Positions 17,550-21,556 of a stretch of DNA of 64,000 nt are shown in pieces. Below the pieces are notes generated by a model. It saw only the letters and a program-made list of their open reading frames with translations, was not told the DNA's origin and searched no databases. The stretch comes from Escherichia phage JY01, in the sequence record OR995200.1; one strand, given 5' to 3'. The position numbers and the translations under genes are program-made. The number at the start of each line of letters is the position of its first letter. Positions within the stretch are counted from its first letter, which is position 1.

Positions 17550-18020
17550 TTAATCATGTTTCCACACCCCATCGGTATTTGACCAAAGTCGCTGATTGTC
17601 TGATCCTCGCCACAGCTTTTTGGTCGGAAGATTTTTCTCATACTTCCCATCAATAATAACATCAACATATTTAAGCATTTCTAGTTGTTTAATATCTTCA
17701 AACTTATATCCTGTCCACAACCAAATGCTTTTATTGGGATAAAGATTTTTTACTGTTTGAACGATGCAATGAATAACATCTCGGTTATCAGGATAGAGAG
17801 GGTCACCTCCGGTTATAGTCAATCCTTCTATATAATCATTATTCAAACATTCAATCAATTGTTCTAGTGTTTCACCAGTGAATGGAATACCATTTCTAGC
17901 ATTCCATGTTGATTTATTATAACACCCTTCGCATTTATGCAAACAACCTGTGACGAAAAGAACGACCCTGCATCCAGGGCCATTCACAAAATCACAGGGA
18001 TAAAATCTATCATAATTCAT
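17550..18020 (-). CDS. nrdG: Anaerobic ribonucleotide reductase activating protein (radical SAM)
   Basis: 156 aa; cysteine cluster CLHKCEGC near N-terminus. Confidence 0.85.
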   Translation of the reverse strand: MNYDRFYPCDFVNGPGCRVVLFVTGCLHKCEGCYNKSTWNARNGIPFTGETLEQLIECLNNDYIEGLTITGGDPLYPDNRDVIHCIVQTVKNLYPNKSIWLWTGYKFEDIKQLEMLKYVDVIIDGKYEKNLPTKKLWRGSDNQRLWSNTDGVWKHD

Positions 18021-19834
18021 TGGTGTTTAACCCTATGCATGATTTCTTTATTTTTACCGAGATTAAATCCGCGTTCGTTCGGATTTCCCAAATAACCACA
18101 TGTTCTTCTTATGGTATTCATCTTTTTAGGATCAGTTTCTCCGCAAATAGAACAAACAAATCCGTTTTCAGTAGGAGTCATTTCATGGGTACTTCCACAT
18201 GTAAAACATTTATCTACTGGCATATTAACACCAAAATAATCTAAATGTTGTGCGGCATAATCCCATACAGCCTCAAGACCTTTTAAGTTATTTTTCATAT
18301 CAGGAAGTTCAACATAAGAAATGTGACCACCTGTCGCAATGAAATGATATGGCGCTTCACGAGAAATCTTTTCAAACGGAGTAACATTTTCTTCTACTGA
18401 AACGTGGAAACTGTTAGTGTACCAGCCTTTATCAGTAACATCCTTTACACTTCCATATTTTTCTGTATCAAGTTTACAGAAGCGATAGCAAAGGTTTTCA
18501 GCAGGAGTAGAATACAAGCTAAAAGCAAATCCAGTTCTTTCAGTCCACTGTTTAAGATGAGCATTCATTTTAGTTAAAATTTCTTGCCCAATATCACGAC
18601 CGACAAGAATATTCAATTCGTGAATACCAATGTATCCTAAAGACACTGAACTTCTACCGTTTTTAAATAACTCAATTATGTCGTCATCAGGTTTAAGACG
18701 AACCCCGAATGCACCTTCTTGGTAAAGAATAGGAGCAACAGTCGCTTTAACTCCTTTTAAGGAACTAATTCTACACATCAAAGCTTCAAAACATAAATCC
18801 ATTCGCTCATTGAACAATTCAGTAAATTTCTGTTCATTGAACTGTGTTCCAATATAAGAATCTAACGCAATACGAGGAAGATTCAGTGTTACAACACCAA
18901 GATTATTACGTCCATCAAGAATTTCATTGCCAGTCGAATCTTTCCATACGCTCAAGAAACTACGGCATCCCATCGGGGAAACAGGAACAGATGAACCAGT
19001 GATAGCTTTATTGTTCTTAGCTGAAATAATATCAGGATACATCCTTTTGCTTGCACACTCTAAAGCAAGCTGCTTAATATCATAGTTCGGATCGTCTTTA
19101 TAAAGATTAACACCTTCTTCAACAAACATAACAAGCTTAGGGAAAATAGGAGTTATCCCATCACGACCAAGACCTTTAATACGATTTTTCAAAATTGCTT
19201 TCTGAATCATTCGTTCAGTCCAGTCAGTTCCTGTACCAAATGTAATTGTTACAAAAGGAGTCTGTCCGTTTGAACTAAAGAGAGTATTTACTTCATATTC
19301 ATAAGCTTGGAATGCATCGTATACGTCTTTTTCTGTTTTAGATTGGGCATAATTCAGTGCATCGGCGATTTGCCATTTTTCTGCGTCTTCGATATGTTTT
19401 GCATAGGTGCGTTTAACATAAGGAGAAAGTACTTTATCTACATTAGCAAAAGTCGTTCCGCCATATTGATGGGAAGCAACTTGCGCAGTAATTTGTGCCA
19501 TAATTGCAGTAGCAACACCGATTGATTTAGGAGTTTCAATCTGCGCATTACCAAGCTTAAATCCGTTCTCAAGCATTCCTTTTAAATCTACTAAACAACA
19601 ATTAGTAAATGGAAGAGCAGGGGAATAATCAATATCATGAAAATGAATAATTCCGCTTTCATGCGCTTTCATAATAAAAGACGGGACCATATTTTTGGCA
19701 ATGTGTTTAGACACAATACCAGCCATAAGGTCCCGTTGAGTTGGAAAAACACGAGAATCTTTATTAGCATTCTCGTTTAAAAGGTCTTTATTAGTTTTAT
19801 GAATCAATCCTTCAATTTCTTTTTCAATTGTCAT
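18017..19834 (-). CDS. nrdD: Anaerobic ribonucleoside-triphosphate reductase, uninterrupted
   Basis: 605 aa; C-terminal glycyl-radical region RTCGYLG and Zn cysteines CFTCGS..CSICG. Confidence 0.9.
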   Translation of the reverse strand: MTIEKEIEGLIHKTNKDLLNENANKDSRVFPTQRDLMAGIVSKHIAKNMVPSFIMKAHESGIIHFHDIDYSPALPFTNCCLVDLKGMLENGFKLGNAQIETPKSIGVATAIMAQITAQVASHQYGGTTFANVDKVLSPYVKRTYAKHIEDAEKWQIADALNYAQSKTEKDVYDAFQAYEYEVNTLFSSNGQTPFVTITFGTGTDWTERMIQKAILKNRIKGLGRDGITPIFPKLVMFVEEGVNLYKDDPNYDIKQLALECASKRMYPDIISAKNNKAITGSSVPVSPMGCRSFLSVWKDSTGNEILDGRNNLGVVTLNLPRIALDSYIGTQFNEQKFTELFNERMDLCFEALMCRISSLKGVKATVAPILYQEGAFGVRLKPDDDIIELFKNGRSSVSLGYIGIHELNILVGRDIGQEILTKMNAHLKQWTERTGFAFSLYSTPAENLCYRFCKLDTEKYGSVKDVTDKGWYTNSFHVSVEENVTPFEKISREAPYHFIATGGHISYVELPDMKNNLKGLEAVWDYAAQHLDYFGVNMPVDKCFTCGSTHEMTPTENGFVCSICGETDPKKMNTIRRTCGYLGNPNERGFNLGKNKEIMHRVKHQ

Positions 19835-20304
19835 TTTAAACTCTTTCTAAGCTGCTTCTTAAATGAAGCTATTAATTGTGTTTTAGTGTCAGATTCATTA
19901 TATTCAAATCCTCTTTGAAGCATCTCGGCCATCATTTCCTCTTTTCCTAAACGAGAAAATTCCTTTGATTTATCTCCAACAAAGTTAGGGTGAATATTAT
20001 TTTGGGTGTAATCGGATTTTAAATAAGTAAGTAAATTTTCTAACCATTCAAGATAATCAACACCTTGTCCCTTTAAGCCAGAACGATTAAATTTATGCTT
20101 CATTTGACCTTCTGCGGCATTGCATAGATTACAAAGCAATCCACGTACCTTTCCTGCTTTTGGTCCATTTAATTCATGGTCATGATCAAGATGATTAGCT
20201 TGAACATCAGGATTTAGTTCTCGTTGGCAAATTAAGCATTTACCGTTTTGTGCATTATAAAATTTTTGTTTTTCTTCTTTGTATAATTTGCCAGTCAATA
20301 ACAT
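19831..20304 (-). CDS. 49: Endonuclease VII (Holliday junction resolvase)
   Basis: 157 aa; CLICQ..HLDHDH..CNLCN zinc/HNH-type motif. Confidence 0.9.
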   Translation of the reverse strand: MLLTGKLYKEEKQKFYNAQNGKCLICQRELNPDVQANHLDHDHELNGPKAGKVRGLLCNLCNAAEGQMKHKFNRSGLKGQGVDYLEWLENLLTYLKSDYTQNNIHPNFVGDKSKEFSRLGKEEMMAEMLQRGFEYNESDTKTQLIASFKKQLRKSLK

Positions 20305-20344
20305 AATAAAACCCTTACCTTAAATAGATAAGGGTATTTATTAT

Positions 20345-20520
20345 TTTTAAGTATTGTAAAACATTCGATGCAATCGTTTATACTGTCGAATCATCTTTTT
20401 AGTAGGACGAGAATAGGTTCCTACGCAAGTGGTCATATGAGGGTCCGTAGAATGTCCTTTAATAAAAAGTTTCCAAACCTTACCGCCATTTAACTTTTCA
20501 GTATAAACCAATTCGGTTTT
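20345..20520 (-). CDS. Small ORF sharing its C-terminal 14 residues with the adjacent pin-like gene
   Basis: Manual translation MKTELVYTEK...IRQYKRLHRMFYNT; 3-prime end is a diverged copy of 20558-20606. Confidence 0.3.
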
Positions 20521-20606
20521 CATTAAAATGTCCTGTCAGAAAAAGAATTTTGAGTTTTTTCAAGTATTGTAAAACATTTGATGCAATCGCTTATATTGCC
20601 GAATCT
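20347..20606 (-). repeat. Pair of about 45 bp direct repeats (about 89 percent identical) flanking a small ORF
   Basis: 20347-20395 and 20558-20606 differ at about 5 positions. Confidence 0.6.
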
Positions 20607-21045
20607 TTTGGTCAGAAAAAGAAATTTGAGTTTCAAGCCATTCAATGTACTCTGCGGCAGCTTGCATCAGGTTACCTTCATAGCCATCGTTATTTTCTTG
20701 CGCAGCTAATTTAGCTAATGCGTATGAAATACGTTCACCTTGAAAAGCGGCTTTAGGATTCTGAACATCTTGGCTAGTTCTCTCTACAACTTCTTCAATT
20801 TCGCCATTTTCAACGGATTCAGTATTCCACAAACACCAGTATGTAATTGGCTTATCATAGATGTTAATAATCTTTCCGTCGGAAAGTTCAATTTCAATAA
20901 TTCCAGTATCAGGTTCTATATCATCTTCGCATTCTTTTGCAAGTTCACGAACTTTAAAGACAGTACCTGCACTAAGTTCCGGCCAGTAATTACATAGCCC
21001 TGTATCAACACGATTAATTCTAAACCACTTATCTACTGTAATCAT
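20560..21045 (-). CDS. pin: Pin-like protein (protease inhibitor position)
   Basis: 161 aa from MITVDKW; downstream of gene 49 as in T4. Confidence 0.5.
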   Translation of the reverse strand: MITVDKWFRINRVDTGLCNYWPELSAGTVFKVRELAKECEDDIEPDTGIIEIELSDGKIINIYDKPITYWCLWNTESVENGEIEEVVERTSQDVQNPKAAFQGERISYALAKLAAQENNDGYEGNLMQAAAEYIEWLETQISFSDQKIRQYKRLHQMFYNT

Positions 21046-21167
21046 GTCCCATCTCCATATCAATTAAGTCATTTATCGTTGGTTCATTATATACTGTTTC
21101 TTCATCAGTGTAAACCGGTTCTTCCGGCTCTGGCTCTACAGTTTCCCATCTAGCCGCCCACCAAGGT

Positions 21168-21338
21168 TTAACCCCGAAGCTTATTAAGTTCTTCATAATC
21201 AATCCAGGATTCTAATCCTGATGGCAGGTCACATTCAATTTCCCAAAGAAGTTCTTCAATTTTATGAAGACGATCTAATTCTTCAACAGGAATAGTAACC
21301 ATTGATGGAGCTCTTGCTGCACTAATATCGTATATCAT
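21168..21338 (-). CDS. Hypothetical small protein
   Basis: ORF trimmed to internal ATG. Confidence 0.3.
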   Translation of the reverse strand: MIYDISAARAPSMVTIPVEELDRLHKIEELLWEIECDLPSGLESWIDYEELNKLRG

Positions 21339-21340
21339 AT

Positions 21341-21556
21341 TTACCCCAGTTTGACCATGCAATCGCCGTATTTCCACTTAGAAATAGACTTTTCACCATT
21401 AGAATAATAAACTTCGAGTTTAGCACGATTATTTTTAATTTGAATAACCTTGGCTGTCATCAAAGTTCCATACCCATAATAAACTGCAACTTCATCACCT
21501 ACATATACCGCGCTTCCGCGGTAATCATGAATATAGTCAGTTCCTTCGAGCATCAT
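21341..21556 (-). CDS. Hypothetical protein
   Basis: 71 aa ORF. Confidence 0.45.
   Translation of the reverse strand: MMLEGTDYIHDYRGSAVYVGDEVAVYYGYGTLMTAKVIQIKNNRAKLEVYYSNGEKSISKWKYGDCMVKLG

Follow-up and report, generated by a model that had tools for sequence, protein, structure and literature searches.

A fused pin gene, a small DUF7279 gene and two direct repeats upstream of gene 49 in a T4-like phage genome: probable traces of successive rearrangements

The window, the whole 64,000-nt stretch of Escherichia phage JY01 that was analysed (OR995200.1), is a segment of a Tequatrovirus (T4-like) genome. Its minus strand lists nrdD, gene 49, a 58-codon ORF (ORF58) and pin, with the 49.1-like ORFs coming after pin (Table 1). 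The 1301-nt interval from 19800 to 21100 is matched by many deposited phages, at identities of up to 99.5%. The nrdD gene of the T4 record is annotated as a two-piece join (intron), while that of the window is a single ORF and so appears to be intron-less. Window nrdD and gene 49 overlap directly (19831-19834), without the homing endonuclease gene that lies between them in Shinka, fPS-90 and AV109. With homing close by, linked pin-49 alleles could receive help in spreading.

The hairpin before gene 49 has a folding energy of -18.1 kcal/mol (z = -4.65) and is followed by a T-run; its extended stem covers the gene 49 AUG. It is kept in all 14 of the 14 alleles compared, and presumably corresponds to the regulatory hairpin and terminator that are known from T4 ahead of its gene 49. 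At the other end of the locus, positions 21029-21377 form another polymorphic block adjoining pin. The 49.1-like ORF of this block has an N-terminus (MKNLISFGVKPWW...) that differs from that of T4 49.1 (MDYAIKPWW...), and its upstream neighbour (...EELLWEIECDLPSGLESWIDYEELNKLRG) looks like the SA35RD type and not like T4 49.2. In fPS-90 the ORF that corresponds by position is annotated 'antitoxin'.

Table 1. Features of the nrdD-pin region, in coordinates of the window
Feature	Position	Strand	Basis or remark
nrdD	18017-19834	minus	one uninterrupted 605-aa ORF
gene 49 (endonuclease VII)	19831-20304	minus	ORF list, annotations of relatives; bounds the variable interval on its downstream side
hairpin/terminator-like element just upstream of the gene 49 start	20311-20335	minus	terminator scan and folding
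ORF58 (DUF7279/phrog_3272)	20347-20523	minus	Pfam and PHROG profile matches
repeat Y', last 15 codons of ORF58 (MIRQYKRLHRMFYNT)	20350-20394	minus	most of the C-terminal helix, H42-57
X' remnant, dead 3' end of a short pin, 33 nt	20523-20555	minus	now untranslated leader of ORF58
A-run junction between pin stop and X' remnant	20556-20559	minus	specific to the D allele; junction search
pin (PinA, inhibitor of host Lon protease; fused allele as in T4)	20560-21045, from ATG (MITVDKW)	minus	161 aa; Pfam PF10465, phrog_2167
repeat Y, last 15 codons of pin (KIRQYKRLHQMFYNT), residues 147-161	20563-20607	minus	probably taken over from the neighbouring DUF7279 gene
repeat X, pin codons TQISFSD	20611-20631	minus	matches X' at 20/21, 76-nt spacing

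The pin product is readily assigned. It matches the Pfam family Inhibitor_I24 over residues 4-141 (E = 4.2e-47; 159.9 bits against a cut-off of 27) and the 146-position profile phrog_2167 over residues 1-146 (1.6e-65), which places it among the PinA inhibitors, and it is 93-98% identical to the clusters of 161-aa Pin and approximately 93-95% identical to those of the T4 type. Residues 147-161 match positions 44-58 of phrog_3272 and not the Pin profile. The 148-aa pins, which end in SDRAF, are without this 15-residue tail. As the Pin profile stops at residue 146 and the remainder matches DUF7279, the profiles alone show a composite of Pin(1-146) and DUF7279(44-58); the T4-type pin of 161 aa is a chimera. 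The AF2 model of Pin is of low confidence (pLDDT 67.6, tail below 50) and in it the tail merely prolongs the C-terminal helix. A PDB sequence search with Pin gave no match. Binding to E. coli Lon and inhibition of the ATPase and proteolytic activities of Lon have been reported for the 161-aa T4 PinA (Hilliard et al. 1998; Skorupski et al. 1988; both as cited in PMC8835725). In the papers mentioning PinA that were consulted, no account of the origin of a chimeric C-terminus or of a pin-49 allelic series was found.

ORF58 belongs to the same family as RB32 ORF078c, RB69 ORF087c and JS98 orf76. It matches Pfam PF23945 (DUF7279) at 3e-17 (62.7 bits; cut-off 24.5) and phrog_3272 at 3.4e-34, is of the small size typical of the family and has the RPTK...R..KR.HR.F C-terminus. 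All of the invariant columns (R39, P40, T41, K42, R46, K49, R50, H52, R53 and F55) are present, and R46, K49, R50, H52, R53 and F55 lie within the Y' segment. With a dN/dS of 0.08-0.25 against its homologues, ORF58 is a real gene. Its AF2 model (pLDDT 88.8) has a beta-beta-beta-alpha order, three strands being followed by a helix at residues 42-57, so that the captured 15-codon segment is essentially the C-terminal helix. Foldseek searches with this model against PDB and BFVD gave nothing at E <= 0.001, the matches being weak ones to dsRBD-like and uncharacterised phage proteins only; the PDB sequence search gave no match. No nuclease, integrase or transposase domain was found by Pfam, PHROGs or NCBIfam. 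The family is tiny: a profile search of 1.84 billion proteins gave eight representatives at E <= 0.001, of which at least three look spurious (one checked by sequence, two long repetitive proteins unchecked). Of the profile searches of 5.8 billion and 1.84 billion proteins, one gave Tevenvirinae homologues only. A literature search for DUF7279 gave nothing.

The 3' end of pin recurs within ORF58. The preliminary description had reported this at about 89% identity, with coordinates approximately 2 nt out of register and correct in other respects, and the repeat is real: 41 of 46 positions are identical (89%) between the Y' block (20347-20392) and the Y block (20560-20605) at a register offset of 213 nt, and 40 of 44 in the core (20349-20392 against 20562-20605). 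Shuffling the surrounding 1.6 kb 100 times gave best 46-mer matches with a mean of 27.7 and a maximum of 32/46. The repeat spans the stop codon and the C-terminus, and is in frame in both genes. The two proteins do share their ends, as had been stated, with MIRQYKRLHRMFYNT in ORF58 and KIRQYKRLHQMFYNT in pin, a single R/Q difference. Three of the four coding differences between Y and Y' are synonymous and the fourth exchanges R for Q; the stop codons are TAA in ORF58 and TGA in pin.

A second direct repeat, X/X', was absent from the preliminary description. The copy of X proper within the X' remnant (20535-20555; 20/21) lies immediately upstream of the ORF58 start. X' reads ACT CAA AAT TCT TTT TCT GAC AGG ACA TTT TAA, that is, TQNSFSDRTF and a stop, the latter overlapping the ORF58 ATG as TAATG. 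When it is aligned to ECML-363, PEC04 and EcNP1, the corresponding bases are the real end of pin, overlapping the ORF58 start (TAATG) in the same manner, and the translation matches the ETQNSFSDRAF ends of those pins. The sequence at the A-run junction, CTTGAAAA/AACTC, resembles the flanking sequence on the downstream side of Y as well as that on the upstream side of X. The order is X-Y-X'-body-Y', and both repeats (46 and 21 nt) consist of coding sequence of the two neighbouring genes. This is not the layout of a transposon-type target-site duplication, as Y' sits within the 'insert'.

The arrangement of the window is not identical in all relatives, which were sorted by their pin-49 interval into four alleles, A-D. 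Allele A (ECML-363, PEC04, EcNP1 and ESh33; 289-290 nt) has a 148-aa pin ending in FSDRAF whose stop overlaps the start of an intact ORF58. Allele B (GiZh and ECp13; 121 nt) has the same short pin, with ORF58 cleanly deleted at an AAT/TTTTA microhomology. Allele C (T4, T2, RB6, RB51, HP3, PhiZZ6 and fPS-90; 152-153 nt) has the 161-aa pin without ORF58, its junction GAC CGA/ATG ATT joining pin R146 to ORF58 M44. Allele D (the window, APTC-EC-2A, AV119, RB33 and others; 365-366 nt) has the 161-aa pin, AAAA, X' and an intact ORF58. D exceeds C by 213-214 nt and A by 75-77 nt, and A exceeds C by 138 nt, which is in frame.

The pin-49 region is carried by approximately 496 records of the phage collection, among which the alleles were counted approximately by junction-specific searches. 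The D junction is present in 112 records (54-nt query centred on the junction, coverage of at least 80%) and the fused X-Y junction in 365; with 112 of the latter being D, C accounts for approximately 253. ORF58 was found at an identity of at least 99% in 110 records, which matches D, and at 90-95% in 62, which matches A. The B junction was found in 87 records at most, some of which are A-type pieces joined by the search tool. The overall estimates are approximately 250 records of the T4 type, 60-80 of A, 55-70 of the ORF-deleted B and 112 of D, and fused pins make up about 74% of Tequatrovirus records. The D arrangement is common and clearly not universal. About 63% of records, namely those of alleles B and C with T4 and T2 among them, are without ORF58. 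The gene must therefore be dispensable, and it is a conserved accessory gene.

Outside of these alleles, the preliminary description had raised the occurrence of the 58-aa ORF elsewhere; homologues do occur upstream of gene 49 in four genera, and there is no second copy within the window. At the Tequatrovirus, Mosigvirus, Dhakavirus and Gaprivervirus loci examined, the DUF7279 gene always follows pin or pin-derived ORFs and immediately precedes gene 49. The stop of the preceding ORF overlaps the DUF7279 start (TAATG or ATGA) in Tequatrovirus A-type genomes, JS98 and VR7, and 9 nt separate the two ORFs in Mosigvirus SA35RD. A short C-terminus, FS(D/S)(R/E/K)xF followed by a stop, is conserved in the distant pins of Marfa (...RFSDRPF), JS98 (...RFSDEAF), VR7 and P0029-P0031 (...FSSKSF, ...FNAKSF and ...FSDRGF). 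The junction search found the fused tail confined to Tequatrovirus-like records.

Paralogues and altered pins are also seen in these genera. In Mosigvirus a second DUF7279 paralogue, 56 aa long (MQVKLLYRLL...RPTKRQLRKAKRSHRNFYREY), adjoins pin on its upstream side (SA35RD, locus L004, minus strand; contig L009, 1329-1499), so that pin is flanked by two family members. Phage S16 of Gelderlandvirus (L021, 901-1065 and 1430-1597) apparently has two paralogues as well. The paralogues stay within the block from 49.1 to gene 49; in S16, gp48.1 comes after the 49.1-like gene. In JS98 (Dhakavirus; L007, 429-904) and VR7 (Gaprivervirus; L008, 456-901) pin is split and permuted: a 57-aa ORF with the C-terminal helical part of pin (...AAADYIHWLEAQLRFSDEAF and a stop) lies upstream of an ORF of 90-100 aa, and DUF7279 follows. 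The larger ORF carries the FWCFW motif of the N-terminal beta part of pin in JS98, and is without an evident pin motif in VR7.

Because of the DUF7279 slot in other genera, the short motif of the distant pins and the confinement of the fused tail to Tequatrovirus-like records, the arrangement of allele A is taken as ancestral. It would follow that the ORF is not an insertion and that T4 Pin received its tail from ORF58. In the ancestral state, the stop of a 148-aa pin (...FSDRAF) would have overlapped the start of the 58-codon DUF7279 gene (TAATG). An in-frame deletion of 138 bp would then have removed the last two pin codons, the stop and DUF7279 codons 1-43, thereby joining pin residue 146 to DUF7279 residues 44-58 and producing the 161-aa Pin of T4 and T2 (allele C). 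The second step may have been an illegitimate or unequal exchange within the A-run (...ACTTGAAAA/AACTCAAAA...), by which the end of a C-type pin was joined to the pin of an A-type genome at a point 33 nt short of the end of the latter gene, with allele D as the product. The Y-X' junction of D reads ...AATACTTGAAAA/AACTCAAAATTC..., the sequence downstream of Y in the C and A alleles reads ...AATACTTGAAAATAATAAAT and the start of X in pin reads ...GGCTTGAAACTCAAA, a CTTGAAA-like microhomology being shared at the A-run. An A-run exchange between a C-type pin end and an A-type X region yields exactly D. The outcome would be the two pairs of repeats, Y/Y' with copies of 46 nt at a distance of 213 nt and X/X' with copies of 21 nt at a distance of 76 nt. 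The T4-type allele would be restored by homologous recombination across Y/Y', and the A-type by that across X/X'.

Allele D is thus probably the scar of two rearrangements, with the order A to C, followed by C with A to D, being the favoured one. Some results count against it. None of the A-type genomes sampled has the ORF58 haplotype of D (GHSTDPHM, TAA stop), so the proposed A-type parent is unobserved, and there is no clear microhomology at the breakpoints of the 138-bp deletion. The converse order, in which D came first, is possible and the less likely of the two: an A-type genome would have undergone tandem duplication from X to the end of Y, the first ORF58 body would have been lost to give the fused pin, and C would have arisen later through Y/Y', with A-like alleles also regenerable through X/X'. 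D does hold everything needed for C (a 213-nt deletion) and for A (a 76-nt deletion) by simple repeat recombination, and the fused junction common to C and D, at the same position and with the same 161-aa length, is a single event. Against this, one extra event is required and the full tandem duplication is unobserved. Furthermore, the downstream flank of C (TGA AAAT...) is that of A, but Y' of D ends in TAA, which would call for a very short crossover window or a later origin of the TAA. The D-type ORF58 is uniform, which suggests that D is young relative to the commoner and more diverse C: it agrees at 174/174 nt between three D genomes with differences at 25-31/423 nt in their pin bodies, its protein is at least 99% identical among approximately 110 records, and it differs from the A-type at 12-15 nt. 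With ORF58 invariant and the pin bodies diverse, the D block has the appearance of a young haplotype carried into various backgrounds by recombination. Shuffling has mixed the pin-body haplotypes across the alleles, the differences within D (25-31/423 nt) being as large as those between alleles, so that no simple tree supports either order.

Explanations of another kind fare less well than either order. That the repeat is due to chance or low complexity has the AT-rich region in its favour and is refuted by the shuffles, by the identity being in frame in both ORFs and by the conservation of the same tail in homologues across genera. It is highly improbable that ORF58 came into a T4-type pin-49 junction as a small mobile module or insertion, duplicating its target on entry, even though T4 is without exactly the 213-214 nt between the repeats and some relatives (Shinka, fPS-90 and AV109) have active homing endonuclease genes close by, between nrdD and gene 49. 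The slot upstream of gene 49 is occupied in four genera, with the stop of the preceding ORF overlapped in Tequatrovirus A-type genomes, Dhakavirus and Gaprivervirus; the supposed target duplication is the most conserved coding segment of the ORF itself; and the X' remnant indicates that a short pin once ended directly at the ORF start. The lack of a mobility domain or another copy in the window, and a family of eight representatives, at least three of them apparently spurious, point the same way. A homing endonuclease or mobile cassette was considered and rejected, as ORF58 has neither the domains nor the sporadic sites of such an element. Of the suggestions in the preliminary description, a partial duplication by recombination between short homologies was essentially right, while an insertion or small mobile module did not hold. 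The 58-codon ORF would be the older resident, and pin would have acquired its tail.

The tails may also have been kept alike by selection or gene conversion, with both proteins needing the C-terminal helix, for example for a partner such as Lon; this is quite improbable. In its favour, no part of DUF7279 is better conserved than the tail, fusions of Pin with DUF7279 sequences have arisen on at least three separate occasions and fused pins predominate in Tequatrovirus. The pin tails are, however, substituted at sites invariant in DUF7279 (R53 is Q in all fused pins, R46 is Q in T4 and H52 is N in the RB6 type). Among six sampled pin tails, four variable codons are nonsynonymous and two synonymous, and the Tequatrovirus ORF58 tails have three synonymous and one nonsynonymous. 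B-type phages have neither tail nor ORF, T4 and T2 have no ORF, and neighbouring genes with overlapping stop and start codons fuse easily through small indels. In this small sample, the comparison suggests that the captured tail is under relaxed or different constraint on Pin. An R/Q difference is fixed between Y and Y', recent conversion has left no sign, and the two copies do not seem to be undergoing homogenisation.

The rearrangement that is proposed to have formed D would also have altered the expression of ORF58. In allele A, the ORF58 start overlaps the pin stop (TAATG) with a weak GAG upstream only, and in allele D the pin stop lies 36 nt upstream of the ORF58 ATG. The former pin bases CGAGC(G/A) have become AGGACA (66 records at identities of at least 99%) or AAGGCA (the remainder) in D. 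Each resembles a Shine-Dalgarno sequence and is placed at 7-8 nt from the ATG; the window carries AGGA at 20531-20534. ORF58 would be uncoupled from pin translation in D, and its start would be expected from an AGGA or AAGG Shine-Dalgarno sequence evolved inside X'. The sequences suggest rapid change at a newly created putative ribosome-binding site. A promoter scan found no sigma-70-like promoter in the X'/Y spacer. A 6-nt stretch within 20524-20534 varies among D genomes (the window against loci L006 and L016), and the adjoining 174-nt ORF is invariant.

Related, independent events have taken place in Mosigvirus-like contigs. In the metagenome contig L009, pin is fused in frame to the last eight codons of its DUF7279 neighbour at an ACGTTT microhomology (P0028). 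L010 and L011 have lost the downstream DUF7279 gene, and in them a 1-nt deletion has produced an in-frame fusion of the upstream paralogue with the N-terminus of pin (P0027). The pin-49 interval is a hotspot for small rearrangements. The repeated joining of Pin with DUF7279 may point to a functional partnership, or may result simply from the two genes being adjacent with stop and start codons that overlap. The recurrent fusions (the T4-type tail, the L009 tail and the N-terminal whole-protein fusion of L010 and L011) can be read as Rosetta-stone evidence that the basic amphipathic C-terminal helix of DUF7279 is a portable module, and that DUF7279 proteins are partners of Pin in disabling Lon or another AAA+ machine. 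Such a reading is rather unlikely; if it were right, the biochemistry of T4 PinA would in fact have been done on a two-gene chimera.

Among phage inhibitors of Lon protease, T4 PinA serves as the reference, and Lon biochemistry employs it as a reagent. The analysis indicates that the 15 residues at its end are non-ancestral and represent the C-terminal helix of the neighbouring DUF7279 protein, captured via the 138-bp deletion. A natural allelic series is at hand for Lon-inhibition tests, comprising Pin-148 and Pin-161, each both in the presence and in the absence of the small gene. The locus is also a clear example of chimeric genes being built and spread in T-even phages by deletion, illegitimate exchange and recombination.

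With regard to known loci, T4 and T2 (allele C; PinA UniProt P07068, 161 aa) have the fusion point, length, tail (...QYKRLHQMFYNT) and gene 49 hairpin of the window. The comparison with the T4 gene 49-pin junction, which the preliminary description had proposed, thus gives the same fused pin, with T4 lacking the 213-214 nt that bear the X' remnant and the intact DUF7279 gene; the junction codons are RMIQ in T4 and QKIR in the window. The RB33-type genomes (ECO07P4, a51, APTC-EC-2A and ZN18; allele D) are identical in arrangement to the window with no structural difference, and their small ORF is annotated as a hypothetical protein, or as 'host protease inhibitor' in one record. Two features distinguish the D sub-haplotypes: the X' leader, which is AGGACA or AAGGCA, and junction codon 147, which encodes K or M. 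The D allele is already present in more than 100 deposited genomes and is no new kind of genetic element. The A-like loci of ECML-363, PEC04 and EcNP1 (Tequatrovirus), RB69 ORF087c and SA35RD (Mosigvirus), JS98 orf76 and VR7 ORF082c have a short pin without the DUF7279 tail, no duplication and a DUF7279 protein that is 55-93% identical to ORF58.

The mechanisms, namely short-homology deletion or duplication and mosaic recombination, are classical for T-even phages. Deletions and duplications in these phages occur between short direct repeats or microhomologies, as at the classic rII deletion end-points. Microhomologies or short runs are found here at the B deletion (AAT/TTTTA), in L009 (ACGTTT) and in the A-run of the D junction. 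Unlike the rII deletions, the events at this locus appear to have made an in-frame chimeric protein and a composite allele, present at high natural frequency.
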